A stretch of 41,858 nucleotides of DNA from positions 1 through 41,858 of the forward strand of contig JBDRST010000028.1 of NCBI GenBank assembly GCA_043824525.1, read 5' to 3'. This stretch comes from a bacterium (GTDB taxonomy: Bacteria; Patescibacteriota; Minisyncoccia; Minisyncoccales; Staskawiczbacteraceae). Each line of letters opens with the position of its first letter. The stretch's first letter is position 1. Below the pieces are notes generated by a model. The model ran no database searches. It was not told the DNA's origin and saw nothing but the letters and a program-made list of their open reading frames with translations. The position numbers were made by a program, and so were the translations under genes. Positions 1,806 to 41,276 of this stretch are shown piece by piece.

Positions 1806-3005
1806 ATGACATTAAAAGAAAATATCAAAAAATTTATTCCTCCATTTGTGTTGAGCGTCTATCATTATAAGCTGGCTTTGCTTGGGGCCTTTTTGTATGG
1901 ATTTCCCGGGAAAAATAAAGGGTTAAAAATTATTGGAGTAACAGGAACCAGCGGAAAATCAACTACAGTTAATTTTATAACAAGGATATTAGAAGAAGCT
2001 GACAACAAAGTCGCATTCATATCTTCGATAATATTTAAGGTGGGAGATAAAGAATGGGAAAATAAATACAAAATGACAATGCCAGGCCGCTTTGTTATCC
2101 AAGGATTTTTAAGGCGAGCAAGAAATGCAGGATGCAAATATGTTGTTTTAGAGGTTACTTCTGAGGGCATAAAACAGTTTCGGCATAAGTTTATAAATTT
2201 TGACACAGTTGTTTTTACAAATTTAGGACAAGAGCATATTGAATCTCACGGAGGGTTTGGAAATTACAGGAATGCGAAACTTAAACTTTTTAAAGAAAAT
2301 CAAAATACGCATGTTATAAACGCGGATGATGAAAACGCAAAATATTTTTTAGATGTGCCAGCAAATAAAAAAATTAGTTTTAGTATAAAAAATGAAAAAG
2401 CAAAAAAAATTAAACTTAATTTGATTGGGGCGTTTAATATAATGAATGCCTTAGCCGCAGTGTGTGCTACAGAAAATTATGGAGTTGATTTTGAAACTTG
2501 TAAAAGAGCGCTTTTAAAAGTAAAAGCAATTCCTGGCAGGATGGAAGTCGTGCAGACGGAGCCGTTTATAGTTGTGGTTGATTATGCCCATACCCCAGAA
2601 CAACTTGAAAGCGTTTACCGTTCGTTAACTACAAACCACTCACTACAAACTACAAACTTAGTATGCGTGCTGGGAAGTTGCGGAGGAGGTAGGGATAAAT
2701 GGAAAAGGCCTGTTTTGGGTGAAATCGCTAAAAAATATTGCAAGGAAATTATAATAACAAACGAAGATCCGTACGACGAAGATCCAATAAAAATAATAGA
2801 AGAGGTCGCAGAAGGAGCCGGCAAAAAGGCAAAAAAGATTTTAGATAGAAAGGAAGCAATAAAAAACGCCATTGAATTAGCAGAGCCCGGAGGCGTTGTT
2901 ATAATCACAGGCAAAGGATCAGAGCCATGGATGTGTGTAAAAAACGGAAAAAAAATACCTTGGGATGATAGGCAAACAGCAAAAGAGGCGCTTAAGGGAC
3001 CGTAA
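1806..3005 (+). CDS. murE: Mur ligase family, MurE-like UDP-MurNAc-tripeptide synthetase (short form)
   Basis: P-loop GVTGTSGKSTT, DYAHTPEQL, GGGRDKWKRP and NEDPYDEDP blocks characteristic of MurE-type ligases. Confidence 0.75.
   Translation: MTLKENIKKFIPPFVLSVYHYKLALLGAFLYGFPGKNKGLKIIGVTGTSGKSTTVNFITRILEEADNKVAFISSIIFKVGDKEWENKYKMTMPGRFVIQGFLRRARNAGCKYVVLEVTSEGIKQFRHKFINFDTVVFTNLGQEHIESHGGFGNYRNAKLKLFKENQNTHVINADDENAKYFLDVPANKKISFSIKNEKAKKIKLNLIGAFNIMNALAAVCATENYGVDFETCKRALLKVKAIPGRMEVVQTEPFIVVVDYAHTPEQLESVYRSLTTNHSLQTTNLVCVLGSCGGGRDKWKRPVLGEIAKKYCKEIIITNEDPYDEDPIKIIEEVAEGAGKKAKKILDRKEAIKNAIELAEPGGVVIITGKGSEPWMCVKNGKKIPWDDRQTAKEALKGP
2627..2660. repeat. AT-rich short tandem repeat (ACTACAAAC-like x3) lying in frame in the Mur ligase
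   Basis: AACTACAAACCACTCACTACAAACTACAAACTTA encodes TTNHSLQTTN. It sits just before the conserved GxCGGGRD block. Confidence 0.4.
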
Positions 3006-3080: not shown

Positions 3081-3263
3081 ATGAACAAAAAAATGTCCCG
3101 ACAAAATCGCGGATCCTCGATAGCGAAGCTATCGGGACCAAAATCATTGAGAAAATTTATCCGCACGGAAAAAGCGCGTATAAGAAGGCAGGTTTTAGAT
3201 ACAAAAAAGCAGGAAGAGGAGATAAAAAAAATATATGAGAGATTTGGCGATAAAAGAATATAG
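3081..3263 (+). CDS. Small basic hypothetical protein (60 aa); coding status uncertain
   Basis: Track ORF with no clear SD. The N-terminal 20 aa are largely encoded by a family-A palindromic element. Confidence 0.3.
   Translation: MNKKMSRQNRGSSIAKLSGPKSLRKFIRTEKARIRRQVLDTKKQEEEIKKIYERFGDKRI
3095..3138. repeat. Family-A palindromic element, reverse orientation
   Basis: GTCCCGACAAAATCGCGGATCCTCGATAGCGAAGCTATCGGGAC. Its reverse complement aligns with the copies at 11213 and 40675. Confidence 0.7.
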
Positions 3264-3351
3264 AATATAGAATCTGGTATTTTGAATAGAATAAAGAATT
3301 AAGAATAAAGGAAGCGCAAAACCAGATATTCTATTTAATTCCGCAGAATTA

Positions 3352-3387
3352 TGCCGATTTCATCGAGCATTCTCGGTAAAGTCGGAA
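3352..3387. repeat. Family-A half copy, intergenic
   Basis: TGCCGATTTCATCGAGCATTCTCGGTAAAGTCGGAA matches the second half of the ileS and NIF3 copies. Confidence 0.55.
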
Positions 3388-3458
3388 CAGCTATGCAATA
3401 AGCGGTTCCTATTCAAAATTCCATTCTAAATTCTTAATTCAAAATTCTAAATTCTAAT

Positions 3459-4478
3459 ATGAGGATACAAGATATACATAATTTAGCTGTAAAAATGGGC
3501 ATTGATGCTGATTTTAGGGGACGAGAAGGCGTGCAAAAGTTTTTGGATAATAAAAGAAAAAAGTTTGAAAAGATGTCTTCAGAAGAAAAGGAGGAGTTTG
3601 ATAAAGACGCGCTGGATAATCCTTATTTGGATTCTGGGGTTTATAACGTTTCAGAAGACAAGGAAATCAAAAAAGTTTTAGTTGGTATTGATATTACCCC
3701 GTCGGAAATTTTAATGGCAAAACAAATAGGAGATATTGATTTGGTTATAGCCCACCACCCAATAGGAAAAGGTTTAGCTCAGTTAGCTGATGTAATGGAA
3801 TTGCAAGTGGATGTTTGTAATTATTATGGAGTTCCTGTTAATGTTGCAGAAGGTTTGATGAAAGAAAGGATTTCAGAGGTTGCAAGGGGCGTAAACTCTT
3901 CAAACCACCAAAGAACCGTGCATGCTGCAAAATTGATGGGGGTTAACTTAATGAACTCTCATACGCCCTGCGATAATTTAGCAGCTAAATTTTTAAAAAC
4001 TTTTGTTGAAGAAAGGAAGCCGGAAAGAGTTAGCGAGTTAATAAGCATTTTGAAAGAAATTCCCGAGTATAAAGAGGCAATGAAAATTGGGGTGGGACCT
4101 AAGGTTTTTGCGGGGAGCGCTGAAAATAGATGCGGAAAAATTGCTTTGTCTGAAATTACAGGGGGAACAGAGGGTTCGCCAAAGCTTTATGAAAAAATGG
4201 CGCAGGCCGGCGTTGGCACGGTTGTTGGCATGCATATTACAGAAGAGCACAAAAAAGAAGCTGAATTAGCTCATGTTAACATTGTAATTGCGGGACATAT
4301 TTCCTCTGACTCTTTAGGGGTAAATTTATTTTTAGACGAACTTTGCCGACAAAGTCGAGCATCCTCGACCCCGATTTTATCGAGGGTTCACGACAAGGTC
4401 GGAATAGAATCGGGAAAAAATCAGGGAATTGAAATTGTGGCATGCTCTGGGTTTACAAGGTTTTCGAGGGTTAGTTAA
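3459..4478 (+). CDS. NIF3 (NGG1p-interacting factor 3) family dinuclear-metal protein
   Basis: The DLVIAHHP motif and the C-terminal IAGH...GIEIV layout are typical of NIF3/YqfO proteins. It carries the family-A insertion near the C-terminus. Confidence 0.75.
   Translation: MRIQDIHNLAVKMGIDADFRGREGVQKFLDNKRKKFEKMSSEEKEEFDKDALDNPYLDSGVYNVSEDKEIKKVLVGIDITPSEILMAKQIGDIDLVIAHHPIGKGLAQLADVMELQVDVCNYYGVPVNVAEGLMKERISEVARGVNSSNHQRTVHAAKLMGVNLMNSHTPCDNLAAKFLKTFVEERKPERVSELISILKEIPEYKEAMKIGVGPKVFAGSAENRCGKIALSEITGGTEGSPKLYEKMAQAGVGTVVGMHITEEHKKEAELAHVNIVIAGHISSDSLGVNLFLDELCRQSRASSTPILSRVHDKVGIESGKNQGIEIVACSGFTRFSRVS
4346..4415. repeat. Family-A long-form element in frame in NIF3
   Basis: CCGACAAAGTCGAGCATCCTCGACCCCGATTTTATCGAGGGTTCACGACAAGGTCGGAATAGAATCGGGA encodes RQSRASSTPILSRVHDKVGIESG. 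Confidence 0.65.
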
Positions 4479-10342: not shown

Positions 10343-12130
10343 ATGAGAAATAGAGAATTGGCAAAGATATTCAACGATATGGCTAGATTTTTAAGAATAG
10401 AGGGGGTGGCTTTTAAACCCTATGCTTATGAAAGGGCTGCTATATCTTTGGAAACCTTAAGTGAGGACGTGGGAGATATGTATAGAAGGGGCGGAGTAAA
10501 AGCTTTGTTAGAAATTCCCGGTATTGGCAAAGCTATGGCTGACCACATAGAAGAATATTTGAAAACAGGAAAAATAAAACATTACGAAAGCTTTAAGAAG
10601 AAATTGCCGATTGATTTTGATGGATTAGTTAGGGTGGAAGGCATGGGAGCCAAAAAAGCAAAAGTTCTTTACCAAAAATTAGGGGTTAAAAATTTAAAGG
10701 ATTTAGAAAAAGTTGCCAAAGCTCACAAAATAGCTCCCCTATTTGGGTTTGGAGAAAAAACAGAAAAAAATATTTTGCAGGGTTTAGAATTTTTAAAACG
10801 GGATAAAGGAAGATTTTTGCTGGGACAAATTTTACCAACAGCAAGAAAAGTTGTAGAAAAATTAAAAACTTTAAAAGAGGTTGAAGAGATTAGTTTGGCA
10901 GGATCAGTAAGAAGAAGAAAAGAAACGATAGGAGATGTGGATATTTTGGTTGTTTCAAAGAAACCGGGGAAAGTTATGGATTTTTTTGTTAAGCTAGACG
11001 GGGTGGAAAAAGTTTGGGGTAAAGGCGGAACAAAGGCATCGATAAGGATGAGGGAAGGTTTTGATGTTGATTTGAGGGTTGTGCCAAATGAGAGCTATGG
11101 TTCTGCTTTGCAATATTTTACGGGAAACAAAGACCATAATGTGGCTACAAGGCGTATTGCTATAGATAAGGGGCTAAAGCTTTCAGAGTACGGAGTATTC
11201 AGAGGCATAAAATCCCGATCGCAAAGCGATCGAGGATCCTCGATAAAATCGGGACAAATTGCAGGCAGAACAGAAGAAGATGTTTATAAGGCAATTGGGC
11301 TTCCATGGATTGCGCCTGAATTGAGAGAAAACGAAGGAGAAATTGAAGTTGCTTTGAATGGGAAACTGCCAAAATTAATTGAACAAAAGGATATTAAGGG
11401 CGACTTGCATTGCCATTCAAATTGGGACGGAGGAAAAAATTCAATTGAGCAAATGGCATCGTCAGCAATAGATATGGGATATGAATATATTGGAATTTCT
11501 GACCACACAAAATTTTTAAGAATTGAGAATGGATTAAACGAAAAACAGTTATTAGACCAACATAAAGAAATAGAAAAATTAAATTCAAAATTCAAAAGAA
11601 CCCTACGGGGAGCAAGCAATCAAAATTCAAAATTCAGGATCCTGCATGGTTGCGAAACAAATATTTTAAATGACGGTTCAGTTGATATTAAAGACGAAGT
11701 TCTAAAGAAATTAGATTATGTGATTGCGGGCGCCCATTCTTCTTTAAAAATGCCAAAAAAAGAAATGACACAAAGGTTGCTAAAAGCAATGAAAAATCCT
11801 AATATTGATATAATTTCCCACCCAACAGGGCGCTTGATTGGCAGAAGAGATGAATACCAATTAGATTTTGACAAAGTTTTAGAAGTTGCGAAACAGACCG
11901 GAACAATTTTAGAAATTAATTCTTCGCCAGAAAGATTAGATTTAAGGGACATATATATAAGAAGGGCAAAAGCGCAGGGCGTAAAAATGATAATAAATAC
12001 AGACAGCCATCAAAAAGAACAATTAAACTTGATGGAGTACGGCGTCTCAATAGCAAGACGAGGTTGGGCTGAGAAAAATGACATTGTTAATACGTTATCT
12101 GTCGAAAATTTGATGAAACACTTTAAATAA
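10343..12130 (+). CDS. polX: Family X DNA polymerase with C-terminal PHP domain (PolX)
   Basis: HhH motifs (IPGIGKAMA), GSVRRRKETIGDVDILV catalytic aspartates and a PHP block DLHCHSNWDGG. Carries two in-frame repeat insertions. Confidence 0.85.
   Translation: MRNRELAKIFNDMARFLRIEGVAFKPYAYERAAISLETLSEDVGDMYRRGGVKALLEIPGIGKAMADHIEEYLKTGKIKHYESFKKKLPIDFDGLVRVEGMGAKKAKVLYQKLGVKNLKDLEKVAKAHKIAPLFGFGEKTEKNILQGLEFLKRDKGRFLLGQILPTARKVVEKLKTLKEVEEISLAGSVRRRKETIGDVDILVVSKKPGKVMDFFVKLDGVEKVWGKGGTKASIRMREGFDVDLRVVPNESYGSALQYFTGNKDHNVATRRIAIDKGLKLSEYGVFRGIKSRSQSDRGSSIKSGQIAGRTEEDVYKAIGLPWIAPELRENEGEIEVALNGKLPKLIEQKDIKGDLHCHSNWDGGKNSIEQMASSAIDMGYEYIGISDHTKFLRIENGLNEKQLLDQHKEIEKLNSKFKRTLRGASNQNSKFRILHGCETNILNDGSVDIKDEVLKKLDYVIAGAHSSLKMPKKEMTQRLLKAMKNPNIDIISHPTGRLIGRRDEYQLDFDKVLEVAKQTGTILEINSSPERLDLRDIYIRRAKAQGVKMIINTDSHQKEQLNLMEYGVSIARRGWAEKNDIVNTLSVENLMKHFK
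11213..11255. repeat. Family-A short-form element in frame in polX
   Basis: TCCCGATCGCAAAGCGATCGAGGATCCTCGATAAAATCGGGAC encodes SRSQSDRGSSIKSG. Confidence 0.7.
11581..11638. repeat. GC core GAACCCTACGGGGAGCAAGC flanked by AAATTCAAAATTCA direct repeats, in frame in the polX PHP domain
   Basis: A 14-nt direct repeat lies on both sides. The region encodes NSKFKRTLRGASNQNSKF. Confidence 0.5.
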
Positions 12131-12131
12131 T

Positions 12132-12653
12132 ATGATTGGTTTAAAAAAGGGGACTGTAAAATTATCTAAAAATAACCCAGCATGGGAAAAAAGTTTTGAA
12201 GTAGAAAAGAAGAAGTTATTTAAAATTTTTGGTTCTGATGCTGTTACTATCCAACATGTTGGCAGTACGGTGCTTACAACTATTTTTGCGAAACCTATAA
12301 TTGATATAGGAGTGATTATTGCGTCATTTGATAAAGCCAAGCAACGCGCCGTCGCGTTAAAAGAAATTGGTTATATTTTTAAGGAAGAAAATCGAACCGA
12401 TAGATTATTTTTTACTAAGGGACCAGAAAACAAACGCACCCATTATCTACATGTTGGTGAGGCAGGTAGCGGTTATATTGAAAATATGGTTATATTTAGA
12501 GATTACCTCAAAAAACATAAAGACATAGCAAAAGAATATGAGATATTGAAGAAAAAATTGGCAGATTTATATAGTGAAGATAGGTATACATATACTTCTA
12601 AAAAAGAAAAATTTATATTAAGCGTGATAAAAAAAGCTAAAAATAATTTTTAA
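12132..12653 (+). CDS. GrpB/UPF0157 family protein
   Basis: IQHVGSTVL...AKPIIDI and R....F.....THHLHV-like blocks (RTHYLHV). Confidence 0.65.
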   Translation: MIGLKKGTVKLSKNNPAWEKSFEVEKKKLFKIFGSDAVTIQHVGSTVLTTIFAKPIIDIGVIIASFDKAKQRAVALKEIGYIFKEENRTDRLFFTKGPENKRTHYLHVGEAGSGYIENMVIFRDYLKKHKDIAKEYEILKKKLADLYSEDRYTYTSKKEKFILSVIKKAKNNF

Positions 12654-12752
12654 TTTTATTTAATTCCGCAGAATTACAGCGAGTGTAATCGAGTGGTTAT
12701 AATTGTCATTTTGCATTTTGCTTTTTCCATTTTGCATTTGACCAAAGGGAAC

Positions 12753-13250
12753 GTGCCAAGAGAAAAATCAGCAGGAGCTATAATTTTTAGAGAAGAGCCA
12801 TTTGATAAGGCTCAAGGCAAAGAAGGTAAAAGATATTACCTTCTTTTGCATTACTCGCCATCTGAGCCGGGAAGGAGAGGGCACTGGGAGTTTTCAAAGG
12901 GGCACGTTGAGCAAGGTGAAAGCGAGGAGCAAACAGTAAAAAGAGAGGTTAAAGAAGAAACCGGAATAAGCAATTTAAAAATAATCTCGGGGTTTGAAGA
13001 ACGTGTGAAATATTTTTTTAGAAAGGTTTACGGGTTGAAAGGAGAGGCGAGAAAAAAAGCGCCGTGGGTTTTTAAATCAGTTGTTTTCTATTTGGCAAAA
13101 ACAAATACAAAAAAAATAAAACTTTCTGAGGAGCATGCTAATTTTGCGTGGCTATCATACGAAGAGGCGTTTAAAAAAATAACATATAAAAACTCTAAAG
13201 AACTGTTAAAAAAAGCAAATAGTTTTTTGTCAGAAATTCAAACTTGCTAA
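12753..13250 (+). CDS. NUDIX hydrolase, Ap4A-hydrolase-like
   Basis: SAGAIIF...GHWEFSKGHVEQGESEEQTVKREVKEETGI Nudix box. The GTG at 12753 is preferred because the track N-terminus (from 12693) is repeat-derived (CATTTTGCATTT units). Confidence 0.7.
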   Translation: MPREKSAGAIIFREEPFDKAQGKEGKRYYLLLHYSPSEPGRRGHWEFSKGHVEQGESEEQTVKREVKEETGISNLKIISGFEERVKYFFRKVYGLKGEARKKAPWVFKSVVFYLAKTNTKKIKLSEEHANFAWLSYEEAFKKITYKNSKELLKKANSFLSEIQTC

Positions 13251-15079: not shown

Positions 15080-15086
15080 TATTTAG

Positions 15087-15430
15087 TGGAGATGGAGGAG
15101 GCGAATCCTCGTCTGAAAAGTTTATTAAAATAATTCTACAAGTTTAGTTAATTTTTGTGTTCGAGCATTAAATAAAAAATTAACAAAATTTTTAATGCCT
15201 TATCTCCTTAATTTCGACAGCTTAGTGGAGAAATAAACTATCTATCCTAATAGTATAACACCTCCATTCATCTATTAGGAATCAATGGTGAAGATGCAGC
15301 ATTAAGCGTATGCTAGTGCTGGTTGCTTATTAAATAAATTAGCAATTATGTTTTTTCTTAGAGATTTATGAGCTTAAGACCGCTCAACTTGCCTTACTTT
15401 AAAGAACTAATCATCGAAACAATCATCCCC
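15087..15430 (-). ncRNA. ssrA: tmRNA (SsrA)
   Basis: 5' end GGGGAUGAUUGUUUCGAUGA. 3' end GACGAGGAUUCGCCUCCUCCAUCUCCA. The acceptor stem GGGGAUG/CAUCUCC includes G3-U70, and the discriminator is A. Tag ORF GCU AAU UUA UUU AAU AAG CAA CCA GCA CUA GCA UAC GCU UAA = ANLFNKQPALAYA*. It lies directly after smpB. Confidence 0.85.
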
Positions 15431-15433
15431 ATG

Positions 15434-15907
15434 CTATTCGGATAATTCTCTGTTTACCTCGCGTTCAGCATCTCTTTTCTTAATTTTCTCTTTTTTGTCG
15501 TACTTCTTTTTTCCTTTGGCTAACCCGAATTCAAGCTTAATCCTACCATGTTTATCATAAATTTTCAAGGGGATTAAGGAAAATCCCTTTTGAGCTGACT
15601 TTCCAACCAAATAATCTATTTCTTTTTTATTTAAAAGAAGCTTTCTTTCCCTACTCTCATTATAGTCAGCTCCTGCATTATTTGGTTGATATGGAGGTAC
15701 CCTTACTCCTGTTAAATACGGCTCCACCTTGCCCGCAGAAGCTTTAGCGGAGGAGGGGGCCTTTAGCGTAACATAAGAACCGCTCAGGTTTATATGTCCT
15801 GTTTTTATTGACTTTACTTCCTGCCCAAACAAAACAATCCCTGCCTCAAATTTTTCCAGGATATTATAGTCAAAATATCCCTTCTTATTTTCCGAATATA
15901 TTTTCAT
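15434..15907 (-). CDS. smpB: SsrA-binding protein SmpB
   Basis: NKKGYFDYNILEKFEAGIVLFGQEVKSIK...PYQ...RERKLLLNKKEI...G.SLIPLKIY. The ATG at 15907 is preferred over 15931. Confidence 0.85.
   Translation of the reverse strand: MKIYSENKKGYFDYNILEKFEAGIVLFGQEVKSIKTGHINLSGSYVTLKAPSSAKASAGKVEPYLTGVRVPPYQPNNAGADYNESRERKLLLNKKEIDYLVGKSAQKGFSLIPLKIYDKHGRIKLEFGLAKGKKKYDKKEKIKKRDAEREVNRELSE
15727..15757. repeat. Family-E element in frame in smpB
   Basis: The minus strand reads CCCTCCTCCGCTAAAGCTTCTGCGGGCAAGG, near-identical to 16474-16505, and encodes PSSAKASAGK. Confidence 0.6.
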
Positions 15908-17400: not shown

Positions 17401-18201
17401 ATGAGGAAGGAGACAATTATAATTTCGTTAGGGGGCTCGCTGGTGGTTCCAAATGAAATTGATTTAGGATTTTTAAGGAATTTTAAACATTCCTTGGAAA
17501 AGTACTTGTCCCCCACTAACTTTGGGATGGGCAGGCAAGCAACAAAGAAAAGCGAAAATTCCCCAAAGTTAGTGGGGGATAAACGATTTTTTATTTTAGT
17601 TGGAGGGGGCAAGGTGGCAAGAAACTATCAAAAAGCACTTTTGGAGTTTGGGGCAAAGTCATCTGACAGGGATTGGATTGGGATAAATGTAACTATATTA
17701 AACGCAGAGGTTGTAAAAAATGTTTTTGGGCAGCGCTCTTATCCTAAAATTATTACAGATCCAAACAAAAAAGTTAAAACAACAAAGGATATTGTGGTGG
17801 GAGCTGGCTGGAAGCCCGGCTGGTCAACAGATTATGTGGCCGTAAAAATTGCCGAAACATACAACAAAAAAATCCCGACCCGCGGGTCGAGGATCCACGA
17901 TGCCCGCGACAGCGGTCGGGGCATCGGGACAATTATAAATCTTACTAACGTTGACTATGTTTATGATAAAAACCCAAATAACTTTCCCGACGCAAAACCA
18001 TTGAAGGAAGTTGACTGGAAAAGCTTTGAGCGCATTGTAGGAGATAAATGGAGCCCGGGCTTATCTATGCCCTTTGACCCGAGAGCTTCAAAGCTGGCAG
18101 CAAGGTTAAAATTAAAAGTAGCAATAATCAACGGAAAAAACCTTGAACGTTTAGAAGATTTTTTGAATAACAAATCGTTTGTAGGAACCATAATTCAGTG
18201 A
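17401..18201 (+). CDS. pyrH: UMP kinase, archaeal-type (amino acid kinase family)
   Basis: IISLGGSLV..., ILVGGGKVARNY and VGAGWKPGWSTDYVA blocks. Carries two in-frame palindromic insertions. Confidence 0.7.
   Translation: MRKETIIISLGGSLVVPNEIDLGFLRNFKHSLEKYLSPTNFGMGRQATKKSENSPKLVGDKRFFILVGGGKVARNYQKALLEFGAKSSDRDWIGINVTILNAEVVKNVFGQRSYPKIITDPNKKVKTTKDIVVGAGWKPGWSTDYVAVKIAETYNKKIPTRGSRIHDARDSGRGIGTIINLTNVDYVYDKNPNNFPDAKPLKEVDWKSFERIVGDKWSPGLSMPFDPRASKLAARLKLKVAIINGKNLERLEDFLNNKSFVGTIIQ
17509..17579. repeat. Family-D palindromic element in frame in pyrH
   Basis: An 18-bp perfect stem pairs TCCCCCACTAACTTTGGG with CCCAAAGTTAGTGGGGGA. It encodes SPTNFGMGRQATKKSENSPKLVGD. Confidence 0.8.
17873..17930. 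repeat. Family-A element in frame in pyrH
   Basis: TCCCGACCCGCGGGTCGAGGATCCACGATGCCCGCGACAGCGGTCGGGGCATCGGGAC encodes PTRGSRIHDARDSGRGIG. Confidence 0.65.
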
Positions 18202-19874
18202 AAGAGGAAATAAAAAAAATAATTGGAAAATCAATAAAAGAGCTTTTCAGCGAAGTTTTGGATTTTTCTGTTGAGATACCTTCAGAAAAAAATCACGGAG
18301 ATTATTCAACAAACGTTGCTTTGGTTTTATCAAAAAAAATCGGAAAAAATCCGAGAGAAGTCGCTAATTTAATAAAGGAAAAAATTGAGAAAAATAATTT
18401 ATTTAAAAAAACAGAAGTTGCGGGCCCAGGATTTATAAATTTCTTTCTTAAAGACGAAATTTTTATTAAAACTATAAGAAAAATTGATAAAAATTTTGGG
18501 AAGGGAAAGGAGTTAAAAAACCAAAAAATTATTTTAGATTACACCGACCCAAATATTTTAAAGGAATTTCATATCGGGCACTTAATGGGTAATGCAATCG
18601 GAGAATCATTATCCCGCATTTTTGAATTTCAGGGAGCTAAAGTAAAAAGAGTTTGCTATCAATCTGATGTCGGTCTTGGCGTAGCAAGGGCAGTTTGGGG
18701 CAAAATGAAAAATAGCAGTTTGAGCTGGGGCGAGGCGTATGCATTTGGGTATAAATCTTTTAAGGAAAACGAGAACGACAAAAAAGAAATAATTGAGCTT
18801 AATAAAAAAATATATGAGAGAAGCGACAACAATATAAATAAACTTTATGATGAAGGAAAAAAATGGAGCCTGGAGTATTTTGACAAAATTTATAAAAAGC
18901 TTGGCACAAAATTTGATTGGCTGATTTTTGAGAGCGAAACAGGAGAGCTTGGCAAAAAAATTGTTGAAAAAGGATTAAGGGATGGAATTTTTGAAAAAGG
19001 CCTGCCTGCGCAGGCAGGCGAAAAGGCACCAATTATTTTTAAGGGCGAAAAATACGGGCTTCATACAAGGGTGTTTATTAATTCTGAAGGACTGCCTACT
19101 TATGAAGCAAAAGACTTGGGGTTGGCTGAAACAAAATATAAAAAGTATAAGTACGACAAGTCTTTTATTGTAACCGGTAACGAAGTAAACGAATATTTTA
19201 AAGTAATGCTGGCTGCCATGAAGCAGGCTTTGCCAGAACTTGCTGAAAAAACAAAACATATCGGGCATGGAATGATGAGGCTGCCTGAAGGCAAGATGTC
19301 TTCAAGAACCGGGAGCGTAATAACAGCAGAATCTTTAATATTAAAAGTTGAAGAATTAGTTAACCAAAAGATTAAAGACAGAGAATTATCTGACGCGGAA
19401 AAACAGGAAATTTCAGAAAAGGTTGCAATCGGAGCCTTGAAATATTCAATTTTAAAGCAATCGATTGGTTCAGATATTGTTTATGATTTTAATAAATCAA
19501 TTTCTTTTGAAGGTGATTCAGGACCCTATTTACAATATTCATACGCCAGAGCTCAGTCGGTTTTAAGAAAAGCAAAAGACGAGGGCGTAAAATCCAGCTT
19601 TAAAAAACCGCCAGACGGGATTAGCCAGCTCGAAAAAATAATGCATTCTTTTCCGGACGCAGTTCTGCAGGCGAATAAAAATTACGAACCGCATATAATA
19701 GTTATGTATCTTACGGAATTGGCAAGCGAGTTTAACAGCTATTATGCAAAGAACAGGATTGTTGATAAAATAGATGAGTTTTCTTCATATAAAGTTGCGA
19801 TGACAAATGCATTTTCAATAATTATAAAAAATGGCCTATGGTTGTTAGGAATTAACACATTAGAAAAAATGTGA
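18198..19874 (+). CDS. argS: Arginine--tRNA ligase
   Basis: HIGH-type FHIGHLMGNAIG, MSSRTG (KMSK equivalent), and a C-terminal DALR-type anticodon-binding domain ending in M. Confidence 0.9.
   Translation: MKEEIKKIIGKSIKELFSEVLDFSVEIPSEKNHGDYSTNVALVLSKKIGKNPREVANLIKEKIEKNNLFKKTEVAGPGFINFFLKDEIFIKTIRKIDKNFGKGKELKNQKIILDYTDPNILKEFHIGHLMGNAIGESLSRIFEFQGAKVKRVCYQSDVGLGVARAVWGKMKNSSLSWGEAYAFGYKSFKENENDKKEIIELNKKIYERSDNNINKLYDEGKKWSLEYFDKIYKKLGTKFDWLIFESETGELGKKIVEKGLRDGIFEKGLPAQAGEKAPIIFKGEKYGLHTRVFINSEGLPTYEAKDLGLAETKYKKYKYDKSFIVTGNEVNEYFKVMLAAMKQALPELAEKTKHIGHGMMRLPEGKMSSRTGSVITAESLILKVEELVNQKIKDRELSDAEKQEISEKVAIGALKYSILKQSIGSDIVYDFNKSISFEGDSGPYLQYSYARAQSVLRKAKDEGVKSSFKKPPDGISQLEKIMHSFPDAVLQANKNYEPHIIVMYLTELASEFNSYYAKNRIVDKIDEFSSYKVAMTNAFSIIIKNGLWLLGINTLEKM
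19000..19019. repeat. 20-nt perfect GC palindrome GCCTGCCTGCGCAGGCAGGC in frame in argS
   Basis: Encodes LPAQAG within GLPAQAGEKAP. The GC-rich island contrasts with the surrounding AT-rich coding sequence. Confidence 0.55.
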
Positions 19875-20459: not shown

Positions 20460-23400
20460 ATGGCATATAATTTTCCTGAAGAGGAAAATAAAATTTTAAA
20501 ATTTTGGCAGGACAACAAGATTTTTGAAAAAACGCTTGAGAAAATCCCGAAGACAAAGTCGTCGTGGATCCTCGATGCCGATTTGATCGAGCATTCACGA
20601 CAAAGTCGGAATAAAATCGGGACAAAAGGCAAGCGCGCTTTTGTATTTTATGATGGGCCGCCTTTTGCAACAGGCCTTCCTCACTACGGACACATTTTAA
20701 GTTCTGTGGCAAAAGATGTTTTTCCAAGATATAAAACAATGCAGGGTTTTTTTGTAGCTCGCAGATGGGGCTGGGATTGTCATGGGCTTCCGATTGAAAA
20801 CATTGTTGAAAAAGAACTTGGGGTTTCTGGAAAAAAAGACATTGAAGCAAAAATTGGAGTAGAAAAATTTAACCAGACTTGCCGCTCAAAAGTTTTAACC
20901 TATACAAAAGAATGGGAAAAGATGGTGAATAAAATAGGAAGATTTGTTGATTTTGATAATTCATACAAAACAATGAGCTCTGCTTATATGGAGTCGGTTT
21001 GGTGGGCATTAAAAACATTGTGGGACAAAGGGTTAATTTATCAAGGCAAAAAAGTTTTGATGTATTGCCCAAGGTGCGAAACTCCAGTTTCAAAAGCCGA
21101 GGTTGCTATGGATAATAGTTATCAGGATGTTACAGAAGAGGCGGTTACAGTTAAGTTTAAAATAAAAAATCCTGAAAAAAATAATTTGCCTGAAAACACA
21201 TATATTTTAGCTTGGACTACAACTCCCTGGACATTACCAGGAAACGTTTCTTTAGCAGTTGGTGAAAAAATAAAATACGCCTTAGTTCAATCTAATGATG
21301 AAAATTATATTTTAGCTAAAGAAAAAGTGAAGGATGTTTTAAGGGATAAAGAGCATAGAACCACGAAAGAAATATCGGGGAAAGACTTACTTGGATTAGA
21401 ATATGAGCCACTTTATAAAATTGAAGAAGTGAAAAAAACAGGTAAAAAAGTTTGGTATGTTTTACCAGCTGATTTTGTAAACACAGAAGAGGGAACCGGA
21501 GTAGTTCACACAGCAGTAATTTACGGAGAAGATGATTATAATTTGGGAGTTAAGAACGATTTGCCAATGGTGCCTTTGTTAGACAGCAAAGGAATTTTTA
21601 ATGAAGATGCTCCTGATTTGATAAAAGGAAAGTATTTTAAAGACTCAGAAAAAGACATTAAAAATGATTTAGAAAAGAGAGGGCTTCTTTTTGATAAGCA
21701 TAGCAATACCCATCCTTACCCTTTTTGCTGGAGGTGTGGGACACAATTATTTTATAACGCTATTTCTGCTTGGTTTATAAATATCCAAAAACACAAGAAA
21801 AAAATTATAAAACTGAATGAAAAAATAAATTGGCATCCAGAGCATTTAAAGCACGGAAGATTTTTAAATATTTTAAAAGATGCTCCTGATTGGAATATAT
21901 CAAGGAACAGGTATTGGGCAACGCCATTGCCGTTTTTCAAATGCGAGTGCGGGCATACAGAATGCATCGGTTCTGTAAAAGAATTAAAGGAAAAAGCGGT
22001 TAATTTTAGCCAAGTTTACAGCTCAGATAAAATTGAGGATATGGATTTGCACAAAGACAAAATGGATAAAATTGAATTAAGGTGCGAAAAATGCGGTAAA
22101 AAAGCAAAAAGAATTCCAGAGGTTATTGATTGCTGGGTTGAGTCCTCGTCCATGCCGTATGCTGAGCTTCACTATCCTTTTGAAAACACGAGCGAATTTA
22201 AAAAAAGGCTGCCTGCCCAGTATATTGCAGAATATATTGCCCAAACAAGAACATGGTTTTATTATCTGCACGTTTTATCTGTTTTGCTGTTTGGCAAAAT
22301 TTCCTTTGAAAATGTCGTTTCTACTGGCACCGTTTTGAATGAAAAAGGAGAAAAGCTTTCAAAATCAAAACAAAACTTCACAGATCCCTGGATTATAATA
22401 AACCAATATGGAGCAGATGCTTTAAGGTTTTATTTAATGTCGAGTTCTGTAATGCAGTCAGAGGATTTATTTTTTAGCGACAGGGGTGTGAGAGAGAGTT
22501 ATAATAAAGTTATAAATACGCTATCTAATGTTGCGGAATTTTATACAATGTACGCGTCAGAAAACTCAGGCAGTATAAAAATAAATCCGACAAATATTTT
22601 AGATAAGTGGATATTGAGCAGGTTAAACGGCGCCATCTTTGAACTGACTGTTTCAATGGATAAATACGATACTGTAAAGTCTTGCAGAATTATTAAAAAT
22701 TTTATTGAGGAGCTGTCTTTGTGGTATATTAGAAGGTCAAGAGAAAGATTTAAAGAAGATGGCTCGTCCCCCACTAACTTCAAATTAAAAGCAGAAGAAC
22801 AAGGAATGAACTCGAAGTCGGATTTGAAGTTAGTGGGGGATAAAGATAAAAACCAAGCTGGAGCTGTTTTAAGATTAGTGCTGTTAGAGCTTTCAAAAGC
22901 GATAGCTCCCATTTTGCCTTTTACCGCAGAGTATGTTTTTGAAAAAGTAAGGGGCGCGGATAACGCAGAATCAGTGCATTTAGAAGATTGGCCTAAGCAC
23001 AATAAAAAATTTATTAACAAAGACCTTGACGGAAAAATGGACGAGGTAAGAAAAATTGTTAGTTTGTCTTTAGCAGAAAGAGTTTTAAATGGTTTGAAAA
23101 TAAGACAGCCATTAAATAACTTAAAAATCAAAAACGAAAAATCAAAAATTAAGGACGAAAAAGAATTGCTTGTTTTAGTAAAAGACGAGGTGAATGTTAA
23201 AAATATTGATTTTGATGCAAGCATAGAAAAAGAAGTTGAACTTGATGCTAATCTCACAGAGGAGTTAAAGGAGGAAGGCATAATAAGAGAAATAATTAGG
23301 CAAGTACAGGGTGAAAGAAAAAAACAGGGACTGGTACCCCAAGATAAAATTTCTGTAATTATTGCTGGAGATAAATATGTTGTAGATCTAATAGAAAAAA

Positions 23401-26276: not shown

Positions 26277-26888
26277 ATGAGTCGGCTAGCGCTCTGCGAT
26301 GCAAGTGGACCGCTGACAGACCTCCTGCAAAAAATGTCGGGAGAAGATGGCGGGCAATGGAACCGGGCATTGACCAAGTTTCTCCGTAAGGAGAATCCTT
26401 GGTCTGTCTGGCGAACCGTAGTGCTCGGTGGTTTCAAGTCTGCTCAGGATTTTCTGGTGGCCTTTGAAGGGGAGAGTATTTATGTCAGCGATTGGGCCAA
26501 GAACATTATGTCTAAGCCCGAGTTTGCCCAGTCGCTCGTAAACGTGGATCCCAACGAGGAGTTTGACTTAGAGGATCATTCAGTGGAAGAGCTTGTGAGC
26601 GAATGCCGGAACGCGAGTACTGCGGAGGTGTTTGTCGGCGCTTACAAGCTCGGGCTGGAGGACTGTCCTCCGTGGATCGGTCCCAAACTCCGGCTGGATT
26701 ACAGAAACCAACCGAAGGGAGAATGTCGATTTATCGGCATGAAGCCTCTGTTTGCCTCCCACGGCGATCCGGACGTTTTCTGCGTGGGGCGCTATGGGTC
26801 CGAGCTGTGGCTGAGCTCCAACTATGCCCGTCCCGGCGACTTGTGGGATCCCGTCGTTCGCTGGTTGTTCCGCCGCCCCCGCAAGTAA
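26277..26888 (+). CDS. DGR variable (target) protein, function unknown, GC-rich
   Basis: An AAGGAG SD lies 6 nt before the ATG at 26277. The C-terminal ~44 codons are the VR. No signal peptide or TM segment is evident. Confidence 0.75.
   Translation: MSRLALCDASGPLTDLLQKMSGEDGGQWNRALTKFLRKENPWSVWRTVVLGGFKSAQDFLVAFEGESIYVSDWAKNIMSKPEFAQSLVNVDPNEEFDLEDHSVEELVSECRNASTAEVFVGAYKLGLEDCPPWIGPKLRLDYRNQPKGECRFIGMKPLFASHGDPDVFCVGRYGSELWLSSNYARPGDLWDPVVRWLFRRPRK
26749..26881 (+). other. DGR variable region (VR) with GC-rich IMH-like 3' end
   Basis: 133-nt match to 27278-27410 at a constant offset of 529 nt, with no gaps. There are 17 mismatches, and every one is an A in the other copy. The 3' end is CCGCCGCCCCCG. 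Confidence 0.9.
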
Positions 26889-27277: not shown

Positions 27278-27410
27278 TGTTTGACTCCAACGGCGATCCG
27301 AACGTTTTCTACGTGAAGCGCAATGAGTCCAAGCTGTGGCTGAACACCAACTATGCCCATCCCGACAACTTGTGGAATCCCGTCATTCACTGGTTGTTCC
27401 GCCGCCCCCG
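27278..27410 (+). other. DGR template repeat (TR)
   Basis: This copy carries the adenines, with AAC/AAT/AAG codons at the variable positions. It does not lie in a full-length ORF: there is an in-frame TGA 9 codons upstream. Confidence 0.9.
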
Positions 27411-27429
27411 TAACTCTCTTTGTTTTTTT

Positions 27430-28008: not shown

Positions 28009-28416
28009 ATGGAAAAAATAGATTTAACAACGATAACTCCTATATTGGAAAAAATCTTTCGGAAAAAGAAAGCGGTTTTATTTTGTTATGTTTTCGGCTC
28101 ATTTGCCTATCAGAACTTCAATTCAGAGAGCGATGTTGATATAGCTGTTTATATGGATAAAGCAAGAGTAAGCGATTTTTTTGATGAACGACTGGAATTG
28201 ATTTCAGAAATTTCCCAGGCGTTGGGAAAAGAAGCGGATATTTTGGTTTTGAATAGCACTCCTCCTTTTTTAAAGTATGTTGTTTTGAAAGAGGGAAAGT
28301 TAATTTTTAGCAGAGATGAAAGCAAGAGAATTGATTTTGAGCTAAAAACAACGAATGAGTATTTTGATTTTAGATTTGTTTTAGAAAAATATAACAAACG
28401 TATGATGAAGCTATGA
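28009..28416 (+). CDS. mntA: MntA-type minimal nucleotidyltransferase (antitoxin of HepT/MntA type VII TA)
   Basis: GSFAYQNFNSESDVDIAVY (GS...DxD) motif. The 4-nt overlap with the next gene suggests an operon. Confidence 0.75.
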   Translation: MEKIDLTTITPILEKIFRKKKAVLFCYVFGSFAYQNFNSESDVDIAVYMDKARVSDFFDERLELISEISQALGKEADILVLNSTPPFLKYVVLKEGKLIFSRDESKRIDFELKTTNEYFDFRFVLEKYNKRMMKL

Positions 28417-28844
28417 CTTCATTAACCCGACAAAAAATTTTAGAGAAACTGGAAAATTTTCAGGAATATCTGAACTATATTTCTCAGCTAAAAAAAGAGG
28501 CGAAAAGCGAAAAGGTTTTTTTGTCTGATTTTCATTTGTTTGGCAATACCGAGAGGTATTTGCAGTTATCGATACAAATAATAGTTGATGTTTCTCATTT
28601 GCTTATAATTGATTTAGGGTTGGAAAGACCCAAAGATAATTATGAGGCAATTTCAATTATTTACGCGCATAAAATAATTTCAGAGAAAATGGTGAATAAA
28701 CTGATAAAAATGGTCGGATTGAGGAATCTATTGGTTCACGAATACGGGAAAATAGACAGAAAGAAAATATACAAAATTTTAAAAGAGCAAACGGAAGACC
28801 TTAAAAATTTTAAAAAACAAGTTATTAAATTTATTGGAAAATGA
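28413..28844 (+). CDS. hepT: HepT (DUF86) HEPN-domain RNase toxin
   Basis: The RNLLVHEYGKID motif matches the R-x4-H-x-Y HEPN motif. Confidence 0.75.
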   Translation: MTSLTRQKILEKLENFQEYLNYISQLKKEAKSEKVFLSDFHLFGNTERYLQLSIQIIVDVSHLLIIDLGLERPKDNYEAISIIYAHKIISEKMVNKLIKMVGLRNLLVHEYGKIDRKKIYKILKEQTEDLKNFKKQVIKFIGK

Positions 28845-35310: not shown

Positions 35311-35337
35311 TGATTTTTGGATATTTTTAATGTATAA

Positions 35338-35497
35338 TAGACCTGTTGCTTAATAAGGATTTATGCTGCAATTTGAAATTTTGGCTGTAAAATCATAAAA
35401 ATTCGTCAGCTTGCCGAAGGGCAAACCTTTGAATTTTTCTGATTTTTCGCTCAAAATTTCTTCATTTCGCTTATAATCTTATTAAGCAACAGGTCTA
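35338..35497. repeat. ~160-nt hairpin element, copy 2 (family S), inverted relative to copy 1
   Basis: The terminal stem pairs TAGACCTGTTGCTTAATAAG with CTTATTAAGCAACAGGTCTA. A TATAAT at 35333-35338 abuts it. Confidence 0.7.
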
Positions 35498-35513
35498 ATA
35501 AACAAAATATCTT

Positions 35514-37960: not shown

Positions 37961-38134
37961 AATAGAATACTTTGCGGGCGGGATAAAACCCAAAAATAAC
38001 GGCTTTAAAAAGCCAGCGCAATAGCTAAAATTGGATTTTTGATATATGAGCCAATGACGGCCCCAAACAATAGGTGTGCTAACAATATCATTTATTTTTT
38101 ATGGAAATGTGATAATATACATAAATTATACATT

Positions 38135-39547
38135 ATGGCAAAAAAATTTTACATAACGACAACACTGCCTTATGTTAACGCAGACCCGCATATCGGGTTT
38201 GCGCTGGAAATTATACAGGCAGACGTAATTGCCCGATATTATAGAAGCACCGGACACGACATTTTTTTTAATACGGGAACAGACGAGCATGGGTTGAAGA
38301 TATTTCAGGGTGCTAAAAAAGAAAACCTTGATCCTCAAAAATATTGCGACTCCTATGCTGAAAAAAACAGAAAATTAAAATCAGCTTTAAACTTAAGCTA
38401 TAACAATTTTGTTAGGACCACAGACGAGCATCATATACAGGCAGCACAGGAATTTTGGCTTAGGTGTTATAAAAATGGAGATATTTATAAAAAAAATTAT
38501 AAAGCTAAATACTGTGTCGGATGCGAAATGGAAAAAACTGATTCAGAATTGCTTGATAAAAAATGCCTTATACACCCCAATTTGGAAATAGAAATAATTG
38601 AAGAGGAAAACTATTTTTTTAGGTATTCAAAATACCAACAAGCCCTTCTGGATTTTTATCATAAAAATCCAGATTTTGTGGTTCCAGAGTCCAGATTTAA
38701 TGAAATAAAAAAATTTACCAAGAGAGGTTTGCAGGATTTTAGCATTTCAAGGTTGAAAGAAAAAATGCCTTGGGGCGTTCCTGTCCCAGATGACGAAAAA
38801 CAGACAATATTTGTCTGGTTCGATGCGCTCGTGAACTATATATCAGCATTAGGATGGCCAGAAGACTTAAAGAAATTTAAAGATTTTTGGCCGGGTTTGC
38901 AAGTTGCCGGAAAAGATAATCTACGCCACCAGTCATCTATGTGGCAGGCAATGTTGCTTTCTGCTGGACTGCTAAATTCAAAACAAATTTTTATACACGG
39001 GTTTATAACGGTAAACGGCCAGAAGATGTCAAAATCATTGGGAAACGTTATTGACCCATTTGAACTGGTTAATAAATACGGCGTAGATGCCGTAAGATAT
39101 TATCTTTTAAGGGAGATTCCTTCAGCAGAGGACGGTGATTTTACTTATGAAAAGTTTGAGCAAAGATTTAATGCGGATTTAGCAGGAGGAATTGGAAATT
39201 TGGTGGCAAGGATTTTAGGCATTGCCGGAGGTTTAAACAGCGCGCCAAAAGCAACAAAAAAAACAAAAGAAAAAGTTGCAAAAATAAAAGATAATTATAG
39301 GATAGCAATAGAAAATTTTAAATTCAACGAGGCATTGGCGTTGGTTTGGGATTTAATAAGTTATTGCGACAAATACATAAACGACGAAAAGCTCTGGGAA
39401 ACAAAAAAACCTGAAGTAATCAACGATTTGTTTTTTGCGCTCAATGAAATAGCCGTTTTATTAGAGCCGTTTTTACCAGAAACTTCAGAAAAAATTAAAA
39501 AGGCTGTCAAAATCAGGAAAAAAGAAACTCTTTTTCCAAGGATTTAA
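38135..39547 (+). CDS. metG: Methionine--tRNA ligase
   Basis: YITTTLPYVNADPHIGFA (HIGH region) and KMSKSLGN. The ATG at 38135 is preferred because the track extension from 38039 has no homology pattern. Confidence 0.9.
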   Translation: MAKKFYITTTLPYVNADPHIGFALEIIQADVIARYYRSTGHDIFFNTGTDEHGLKIFQGAKKENLDPQKYCDSYAEKNRKLKSALNLSYNNFVRTTDEHHIQAAQEFWLRCYKNGDIYKKNYKAKYCVGCEMEKTDSELLDKKCLIHPNLEIEIIEEENYFFRYSKYQQALLDFYHKNPDFVVPESRFNEIKKFTKRGLQDFSISRLKEKMPWGVPVPDDEKQTIFVWFDALVNYISALGWPEDLKKFKDFWPGLQVAGKDNLRHQSSMWQAMLLSAGLLNSKQIFIHGFITVNGQKMSKSLGNVIDPFELVNKYGVDAVRYYLLREIPSAEDGDFTYEKFEQRFNADLAGGIGNLVARILGIAGGLNSAPKATKKTKEKVAKIKDNYRIAIENFKFNEALALVWDLISYCDKYINDEKLWETKKPEVINDLFFALNEIAVLLEPFLPETSEKIKKAVKIRKKETLFPRI

Positions 39548-40319: not shown

Positions 40320-41276
40320 ATGGTTATAGATACTCACAGCCATTTAAGCTTTAAAGCATACGATAAAGACAGAGACGAAGTTATAAAGCGAACCCAAAAA
40401 CAGGGCATTATTTGTATTGATGTTGGCACCAAATACGAGACCAGTGAAAGAGTGGTTGAGTTGGCTAAAAAATATGAAGGAATATATGCTGCCATAGGAA
40501 TGCATCCATTCCACATAAAAACAGATTTAATAAAATTAAAATTAGACCCAGAGGAGGGCGCATTTGCTCCGCTTGGAGAAGAGTTTGACAAGGAAAAATA
40601 CAAAAAACTGGCTGAATCAAAAAAAGTGGTTGCAATTGGTGAAATTGGTTTGGACTACTATTACAAGCCAAAAATCCCGATGGCAGAGCCATCGAGGACC
40701 CTCGATAAAATCGGGGCCAAAATAAAATTAGAACAATTTAAGGAAAAACAAAAGCAGGTTTTTTTACAGCAGTTGGATTTAGCAAGAGAATTAAATTTAC
40801 CCGTTATTTTACACTGTCGAATGGCGCAACAAAATCTCATTGAGATTTTGAAATCAAAAATCAAAAATCAAAAATCAAAAATTAACGGCGTGGTGCACTG
40901 CTTCACGGGAACGCTGGAAGATGAAAAAAATTATTTAGATTTGGGTTTATATTTGGGTTTTAATGGAATAATTTTTAAAATTGACCCCCACGCCAAACCA
41001 GGACAAGATTCTCGGGTTGGGGGTGGATTAAAAACTGCTGGTTCTGGTGTGGGGGTGAATTTAGATGAGGTAATAAAAAAATGTCCCATAGAGAGCATGT
41101 TGGTTGAAACCGACTGTCCATATCTTACACCCCCTCAAGAGGATAAAAACACAAGGAACGAGCCGATTTTTGTAAAACATGTTATCCAAAGAATCGCGGA
41201 ATTGAAAGAGGTTAGTTTTGAACAAGTCGCCAACCAAACCACCCAAAACGCCAAAGTCCTTTTTAAATTGCCTTAA
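40320..41276 (+). CDS. tatD: TatD-family metal-dependent hydrolase
   Basis: MVIDTHSHL, AIGEIGLDYY, LPVILHCR, VVHCFTG and ETDCPYL motifs. The start is moved to 40320, downstream of the csrA terminator. Carries three in-frame repeat insertions. Confidence 0.8.
   Translation: MVIDTHSHLSFKAYDKDRDEVIKRTQKQGIICIDVGTKYETSERVVELAKKYEGIYAAIGMHPFHIKTDLIKLKLDPEEGAFAPLGEEFDKEKYKKLAESKKVVAIGEIGLDYYYKPKIPMAEPSRTLDKIGAKIKLEQFKEKQKQVFLQQLDLARELNLPVILHCRMAQQNLIEILKSKIKNQKSKINGVVHCFTGTLEDEKNYLDLGLYLGFNGIIFKIDPHAKPGQDSRVGGGLKTAGSGVGVNLDEVIKKCPIESMLVETDCPYLTPPQEDKNTRNEPIFVKHVIQRIAELKEVSFEQVANQTTQNAKVLFKLP
40675..40716. repeat. Family-A short-form element in frame in tatD
   Basis: TCCCGATGGCAGAGCCATCGAGGACCCTCGATAAAATCGGGG encodes IPMAEPSRTLDKIG. 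Confidence 0.7.
40852..40879 (+). repeat. Heptanucleotide tandem repeat (AATCAAA)x4 inside tatD
   Basis: Period-7 TC dinucleotides at 40854, 40861, 40868 and 40875. The repeat encodes KSKIKNQKSKI. Confidence 0.75.
40984..41056. repeat. Imperfect inverted-repeat element in frame in tatD
   Basis: ACCCCCACGCCAAACCAG faces CTGGTTCTGGTGTGGGGGT. It encodes PHAKPGQDSRVGGGLKTAGSGVG. Confidence 0.5.

Follow-up and report, generated by a model that had tools for sequence, protein, structure and literature searches.

The Rickettsia palindromic elements RPE-1 to RPE-10 (RPEs; Ogata et al. 2000/2002) are, in the description given in PMC10969869, repeats of about 100-150 bp known from Rickettsia and encoding a conserved peptide of about 30-50 aa. 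[quoted passage not shown] Repetitive extragenic palindromes (REP sequences), as they are defined in PMC3733652, carry a conserved tetranucleotide, GTAG or CGTC, on one end of their 20-40-nt palindrome. The present work deals with a further short palindromic element, here called Family A, found at seven loci of a 41,858-nt stretch of DNA from a member of the Staskawiczbacteraceae (Patescibacteriota; contig JBDRST010000028.1 of assembly GCA_043824525.1, positions 1 to 41,858, referred to as the window). Six of these loci lie inside genes, and Family A is probably a non-autonomous mobile (selfish) DNA element, translated through in the manner of an RPE. No earlier description of it was found in the literature.

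Family A shares with the RPEs the dispersed palindromes, the lack of a gene of its own, the in-frame position in housekeeping genes that are unrelated to one another, in a genome that is small and AT-rich, and the fit with the fold of the host protein. It differs from them in its size (36-78 nt, equivalent to 12-26 aa), in its two short bulged hairpins, in its length steps of six nt and in its hosts, which belong to many classes of Patescibacteria and to the Bacteroidota. An earlier note, made from the letters of the window, had described the element as RPE-like. This description stands for the in-frame, dispersed and palindromic inserts in surface loops, both here and in 22 of 22 gene-spanning copies elsewhere (among the matches listed), but it fails on size; Family A is therefore not a member of the RPE families proper, the RPEs having been compared by description.

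REP sequences and bacterial interspersed mosaic elements (BIMEs) are mobilized by REP-associated tyrosine transposases (RAYTs), and IS200/IS605 systems recognize a hairpin with a bulged base, the ends being asymmetric. With REP sequences, BIMEs and palindrome-associated transposable elements (PATEs) Family A has in common the very short high-copy hairpins, the absence of target duplication, the bulged base, and the clustering and nesting of copies. Unlike REP sequences, which are extragenic, it is largely intragenic, and its ends read TCCCGA/TCGGGA without any GTAG or CGTC tag. The PATEs of IS200/IS605 resemble it in having hairpins at both ends and no target duplication; Family A is, however, two-fold symmetric and has no conserved one-sided target tetranucleotide. 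Fungal mitochondrial GC clusters, double-hairpin elements and byps are short GC-rich hairpins invading compact AT-rich genomes. The double-hairpin architecture and the invasion of genes are found again in Family A, but all of these are organellar, and byps are skipped by the ribosome and need not hold the frame, whereas Family A keeps it. Terminal inverted repeats are shared with MITEs, although no target duplication is seen at the resolvable sites. Finally, RNA-level intervening sequences are frame-free and their removal restores the gene, and neither property was observed here. Family A is rated as an ultra-short, three-quantised, six-frame-open double-hairpin element distributed across a superphylum, RPE-like in kind.

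Occurrence of Family A in the window

The core ATCGAGGATCCTCGAT, allowing up to three mismatches, has seven matches in the window compared with 0.06 expected from dinucleotide shuffles, and none of 100 shuffled windows reached seven. The structured pattern TCCCGA-N8-11-TCGNGGAYCCNCGA-N5-35-TCGGG gave four matches as against 0.00 expected, so that the similarity of the repeats is far above the shuffled expectation. Moreover, a covariance model (R1), trained on 27 distinct copies and run with filters off, recovered seven loci composed of nine units and no further significant match, which corresponds to a density of about one copy per 6 kb. The loci of R1 are exactly the seven places that had been listed in the earlier note. 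Its proposal that a palindromic element lies inside at least five housekeeping genes is also borne out, the hosts being identified by Pfam as NIF3, PolX (thumb and PHP domains), PyrH (AA_kinase), isoleucyl-tRNA synthetase (IleRS) and TatD.

Lineage-specific insertion in the host genes

A syntenic relative (L006), belonging to a related species with about 72-82% DNA identity over most aligned blocks, is devoid of every window copy that its contig covers. Compared with it, the window contains extra segments of 42 nt in a small open reading frame (ORF), 72 nt in NIF3 (24 aa), 42 nt in PolX, 57 nt in PyrH (19 aa) and 78 nt in IleRS. PolX is 595 aa long here and 574 aa long in most relatives, and its 14-aa segment SRSQSDRGSSIKSG was found in no other of 120 homologues; similarly, the 26-aa segment of IleRS occurs in no other of 44. 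The TatD segment is missing from seven of the eight aligned homologues, the typical ones of 272-273 aa included, and is identical in a near strain (L120/P0122; 89% identical, locally about 95-99% at the nucleotide level), whose 11.5 kb carries this copy only. In the roughly 82 kb available from two related species R1 detects no copy at all, against seven loci in the 42 kb of the window. The orthologue alignments of PolX, IleRS, TatD, NIF3, PyrH and the small ORF thus identify the segments as lineage-specific indels and not as conserved parts of the proteins. Of the two outcomes that the earlier note had named as refuting its view, conserved segments and a similarity no better than that of shuffled sequence, neither was obtained.

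The structural position is best resolved for PolX, in which the insert forms an exact alignment gap with respect to the Thermus enzyme (PDB 3au2), between FRGEK and RIAGE. The AlphaFold model has a mean predicted local distance difference test score (pLDDT) of 84.7, and its low confidence is concentrated mainly in residues 290-303, where pLDDT is below 50 and which are flanked by strands 284-287 and 305-307; the insert is predicted by this model to be an enlarged, disordered tip of a beta-hairpin. The TatD insert, for its part, sits between two matched blocks of PDB 1j6o. The window copies recur in independent assemblies (NCBI, Logan, ENA and JGI): the PolX copy is identical in the Logan assembly L001, and the region of the IleRS copy is 99.9% identical in the JGI contig L143.

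Wider sample and reading frame

A pattern scan of contigs from one genome per species yielded at least 111 stretches, and all figures given below for this wider sample refer to the matches listed. More than 111 stretches compare with about one expected by chance on an estimate of uniform composition. They are spread over many classes of Patescibacteria and over the Bacteroidota; the family is, in consequence, not restricted to genomes of the candidate phyla radiation (CPR) type, the setting in which it had initially been placed.

All six genic copies of the window have lengths divisible by three and are stop-free in the frame of the host, as had been claimed. Two phases are used, and the statement that one phase is never the host frame holds within the window only, since copies outside it make use of each of the three phases and of either orientation. 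Among Patescibacteria, 78% of the 68 copies are divisible by three; this applies to 22 of the 22 copies situated inside ORFs that extend for at least 60 aa on each side and to 66% of the clearly non-spanning ones. Among Bacteroidota, the proportion is 34% of 35 copies, with only two copies inside ORFs of that kind and 11 of the 30 clearly non-spanning copies (37%) divisible by three. Approximately one third of the Patescibacteria copies lie within long ORFs, while the Bacteroidota copies are essentially intergenic. Furthermore, no stop occurs in any of the six frames in 37% of the Patescibacteria copies, compared with 3% of shuffles, and the conserved core is stop-free in all six.

Because the ORF-spanning criterion is partly circular, every non-spanning copy was excised in silico; this test does not depend on the criterion, and neither does the surplus of non-spanning copies whose length is a multiple of three. 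No broken gene was convincingly restored by excising them; the only strong case among five weak ones (L090) proved to be a translated C-terminal tail. The frame statistics, together with this failed rescue, speak in favour of translation through the insert and against its being spliced out or bypassed, and on these statistics the inserts would be translated through rather than removed.

Fold, modules and individual copies

The fold consists of two bulged hairpins in tandem, of which the first is TCC-CGA..TCG-(A)-GGA and the second TCC-(T)-CGA..TCG-GGA. In the 27 distinct 42-nt copies, 99.8% of the cells are paired in this structure and six pairs covary, each end of the element pairing with the centre and not with the opposite end. 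The paired substitutions of the inner hairpin, already pointed out in the earlier note, were confirmed by comparing copies. Since columns 25 and 42, which the search pattern leaves unconstrained, covary, whereas the central pair 21-28 of a cloverleaf (four-way junction) is broken on one side 44 times and compensated once, the element is a tandem-hairpin dimer and the cloverleaf, which leaves a broken pair uncompensated in the 27 copies, was rejected. It was also rejected on the stems of a 36-nt subfamily, in which TCC/GGA is replaced by TGC/GCA and TTC/GAA: these break the outer stem and keep the tandem hairpins. In genic copies 167 of 178 stem pairs are Watson-Crick. The asymmetry of G:U and A:C pairs, considered as a means of discriminating RNA from DNA structure, was dropped with only six informative pairs. 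Folding z values of the hairpins range from -3.4 to -5.0 in the three 42-nt copies of the window and from -2.5 to -4.3 in its other copies.

As regards modularity, the tip of a hairpin measures either 5 or 11 nt (4+3+4), giving units of 36, 42 and 48 nt, with larger composites of 57-78 nt. The terminal inverted repeats are TCCCGA/TCGGGA, often extended to GTCCCGA/TCGGGAC. The copies of the window are collected in Table 1.

Table 1. Family A copies in the window, with their hosts, positions and matches to the covariance model R1
Element	Location	Position	Strand	R1 match	Encoded peptide
42-nt double-hairpin element	PolX	11213..11254	+	68.6 bits	SRSQSDRGSSIKSG
42-nt element	TatD	40675..40716	+	66.4 bits	(I)PMAEPSRTLDKIG(A)
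42-nt element, opposite orientation	small ORF (3081-3263)	3096..3137	-	57.8 bits	SRQNRGSSIAKLSG
57-nt element	PyrH (AA_kinase)	17873..17929	+	32.6 bits	
78-nt composite	IleRS	20545..20622	+	20545-20575 and 20576-20611	
72-nt composite	near NIF3 C-terminus	4344..4415	+	4344-4368 and 4369-4404	
Complete 36-nt subfamily unit	intergenic	3352..3387	+	28.8 bits, full-model match	

The PolX copy lies between beta-strands of the thumb, ahead of the PHP domain, and the peptide across it reads GIK-SRSQSDRGSSIK-SGQIAGR. The copy in the small ORF is placed near the N-terminus of a 60-aa protein whose gene is conserved, with orthologues in the relatives L006 and L003. The PyrH copy has a short first hairpin and a second one lengthened to 23 nt.

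The copies in NIF3 and IleRS, though real, are not the single elements that they had been taken for, each being resolved by R1 into two units: in IleRS the outer unit measures 42 nt and takes up a 36-nt unit directly after CCTCGA, and in NIF3 both units measure 36 nt, the inner one standing in the same relative place. Both composites are 85% identical across 67 nt. The same type of composite is present in at least five other metagenome contexts, and 63 nt of it are 98% identical at an unrelated locus of the same metagenome sample, which indicates that the composite itself propagates and that copying has been recent.

The intergenic locus had been regarded as a half copy, although it is actually a complete unit of the 36-nt subfamily. 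Around it extends a dispersed repeat of 86 nt (3328-3413), with the unit as its core, of which four further copies (95-96% identity) lie on different contigs of JGI Ga0180009; loci L126, L144, L146 and L148 are listed alongside it. The 36-nt unit itself is present on 36 metagenome contigs, and the left arm of the 86-nt repeat (TTTAATTCCGCAGAA) is seen again at 12643-12676.

Hosts and flanking contexts elsewhere

Beyond the window, Pfam-confirmed hosts include UvrA, UvrC, UvrD, RecG (two copies), RpoC, leucyl- and alanyl-tRNA synthetases (LeuRS, AlaRS) and enolase, as well as trigger factor, Mur ligase, the Pol III delta' subunit, a DEAD-box helicase, PrmC and glycosyltransferases. Mur ligase has received three independent insertions in the same loop, which differ in orientation and phase. 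No Family A match was found in 2.9 million viral contigs, plasmid records gave no match to the 111-nt region of the IleRS composite, and Rfam contained no family, ribozyme or intron matching the element.

Several copies occupy the D-loop of tRNA sequences of which a truncated 5' fragment is present, in metagenome-assembled genomes (MAGs) of Rikenellaceae, Bacteroidales and Saccharibacteria (L040:5133-5220, L048:1-300, L095:2080-2200, L079:1-220 and L067:7780-7960). In L040 and L048 the element stands between G18 and G19, and L048 has a second copy in the anticodon. The fragments adjoin, just upstream, an intact tRNA of the same kind; some are tandemly repeated, and one of those in L067 is without the element. 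Functional tRNAs carrying the element were considered and rejected, ARAGORN detecting no tRNA after excision and the hosts being truncated fragments beside intact tRNAs.

In MAGs of Bacteroidales and Rikenellaceae, a conserved unit of about 110 nt has the element at its centre (..GCGAGCTCGCGAG-element-GGACAGTGATTGTGGCTGGTGGGAGCGAGCAAT); it is intergenic and present in several genomes (L010, L012, L019, L033, L046, L102 and L108). This unit may represent either a larger MITE or an RNA with a structure of its own.

Insertion sites and the search for a mobilizing enzyme

When PolX and the small ORF are compared with the empty sites of L006, exactly 42 nt have been gained and no target duplication is observed. 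A 7-bp target duplication was considered on account of repeats of 7-8 nt flanking 11 of 111 copies, and was discarded when these turned out to be 7-nt tandem arrays. Such arrays are found within genes of the window (2618-2650, 23118-23165 and 40850-40890), three units making 21 nt or 7 aa, as in the TatD example encoding KIKNQKS, and also at loci L009, L032, L034, L051, L072, L085, L092, L127 and L137. The 11 Family A copies, and several 36-nt copies, lie in the middle of an array, typically with two units on each side.

A C is found at position +1 in 60% of the ends, where it extends the stem to GTCCCGA/TCGGGAC; CAA is weak (18%). By flank reading, the seven window copies have TG^ on one side (five TTG and two ATG). 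A one-sided TTG/CAA target rule was nevertheless rejected, since the counts in the wide sample are consistent with two ends that vary independently, and 55 of 111 copies lack CA/TG at both.

No ORF-bearing version of the element was seen, and neither the window nor about 1 Mb of loci yielded a parent IS sharing its ends; L084 has three copies, but these belong to a composite repeat that is intergenic. Clearly, the element is non-autonomous.

Other inserts, repeats and genes

Family A is only one of several families of GC-rich palindromic in-frame inserts in this genome. Inserts of other families, missing from L006, are situated at 11597-11617 (PolX, a second insert, TLRGASN), 12794-12817 (NUDIX), 15725-15754 (SmpB), 17508-17583 (PyrH, 76 nt long and containing the inverted repeat TCCCCCACTAACTTTGGG) and 18998-19015 (arginyl-tRNA synthetase, GCCTGCCTGCGCAGGCAGGC). 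The PolX homologues of other Staskawiczbacteria, whose names place the present organism in Candidatus Staskawiczbacteria, contain many more short inserts, at other sites. TatD has a second insertion of 25 aa (DPHAKPGQDSRVGGGLKTAGSGVGV; window 40955-41030, residues ~235-260 of P0121), which is common to strain P0122 and has a similar counterpart in the more distant homologue P0126; in P0175, a TatD of another lineage, a different repeat occupies the Family A site.

Strain L120 contains a 331-aa ORF with a faint LAGLIDADG_3 match, directly before or within the start of methionyl-tRNA synthetase (MetRS; L120:6578-8533). The window differs from it there (38053-38985; MetRS of 502 aa), and the difference may be a homing-endonuclease or intein polymorphism. 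An inverted repeat with 85-nt arms (35331-35504), related to 961-1123, lies upstream of the start of a peptidase M16 gene and overlaps it, and a 136-nt direct repeat (26749-26884 and 27278-27413) has copies 87% identical and 529 nt apart. A tmRNA gene (15084-15430, minus strand) beside smpB scores 93 bits with Rfam, ARAGORN having reported none, and a nucleotidyltransferase/HepT (MNT-HEPN) toxin-antitoxin pair is located at 28009-28844.

Interpretation and significance

The reading that we consider probable, a non-autonomous selfish palindromic element translated through like an RPE, brings together the lineage-specific insertions, the dispersal of the family, the covarying hairpins, the in-frame copies and the location of the PolX copy in a loop. 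Copies would be inserted at the DNA level with no detectable target duplication. As the core is stop-free in six frames and the modules are, in Patescibacteria, multiples of three, an insert falling into a tolerant surface loop would simply be translated, as a hydrophilic loop of 12-26 residues; the gene would survive, and insertions elsewhere would be purged. Movement would take place in trans, by an enzyme encoded elsewhere, for which a hairpin- or single-stranded-DNA-recognizing enzyme is our preferred, though tentative, guess.

Several observations weigh against this reading. No transposase or other partner gene was found in the window, and no Y1 (HUH) transposase was found in about 1 Mb of loci searched with an IS200 TnpA probe. 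The lack of target duplication, the weak flank preference and the lack of a one-sided rule are unhelpful, and the near-identical strain L120, sharing the TatD copy, provides no empty site. Translation is deduced from frame statistics, with a spanning test that is partly circular. Moreover, the changes that distinguish the window copies from one another are perfectly compensated, which would also fit selection for structure, and conservation of sequence across phyla is unusually strong for junk DNA.

These last two points lead to the first of the alternatives, namely that Family A is a selected cis-acting signal and insertion merely its way of spreading: a site bound or recognized by a conserved host factor, such as a DNA-uptake or recombination signal of competence-dependent bacteria or a GGATCC-centred site for nucleoid organization, methylation or segregation, or else an mRNA hairpin pacing translation. 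The core is conserved across distant classes of Patescibacteria and in Bacteroidota, compensatory change maintains the hairpins even in coding sequence, the density is high, and no viral or plasmid match was found. However, the absence of copies from the 82 kb of close relatives implies that no host function depends on the element; positions vary between species, with three independent hits in Mur ligase, and follow no logic relative to genes, while the arms of a palindrome can remain complementary without selection. A selected signal is therefore judged rather unlikely. An even more speculative, and in our opinion improbable, proposal is that of a superphylum-wide 'coding-proof' module, open in six frames and quantised in threes in Patescibacteria only, the GGATCC-centred core of which would be recognized by a conserved machine that actively seeds surface loops into essential proteins and targets the D-loop and anticodon regions of tRNA genes; candidates for this machine would be the apparatus of DNA uptake and recombination, or else a nuclease or recombinase that is structure-specific.

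Removal or skipping of the inserts at the RNA or translation level, either as mini-introns or by bypass of the kind known for T4 gene 60 and the mitochondrial byps, would be in keeping with the strong hairpins (z down to -5.0) and with the copies in the D-loop of tRNA-like sequences. Lengths divisible by three and free of stops, as observed in six of six genic copies here and 22 of 22 elsewhere, would be unnecessary if the inserts were removed, however, and excision never convincingly mends a broken gene; in addition, the tRNA-like hosts are truncated 5' fragments adjoining an intact tRNA, and there is no ribozyme or intron match in Rfam. On the frame statistics and the excision test, RNA-level removal was rejected as very improbable. 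Lastly, although the source is a MAG, an artefact in the form of assembly chimeras or of ancestral, look-alike loop residues has a negligible probability, because the independent Logan, ENA and JGI assemblies hold the same copies as the NCBI one, orthologue alignments show insertions, and the copies are alike at the DNA level while being read in different frames.

The genomes of Patescibacteria are tiny and so densely filled with genes that hardly any space is left between them. The translatability of a selfish mobile element in any frame shows how selfish DNA persists in such genomes, and its inserts readily provide essential enzymes, among them RNA polymerase, aminoacyl-tRNA synthetases and repair proteins, with new surface loops. 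From a practical point of view, they inflate the apparent divergence of CPR proteins and can break orthologue alignments, the coverage of hidden Markov models and structure predictions; they can also cause breaks in assemblies, and they offer strain-level markers. Finally, the comparison between Patescibacteria, in which the copies are genic and divisible by three, and Bacteroidota, in which they are intergenic and not so, constitutes a natural experiment on how genome architecture shapes a mobile element.

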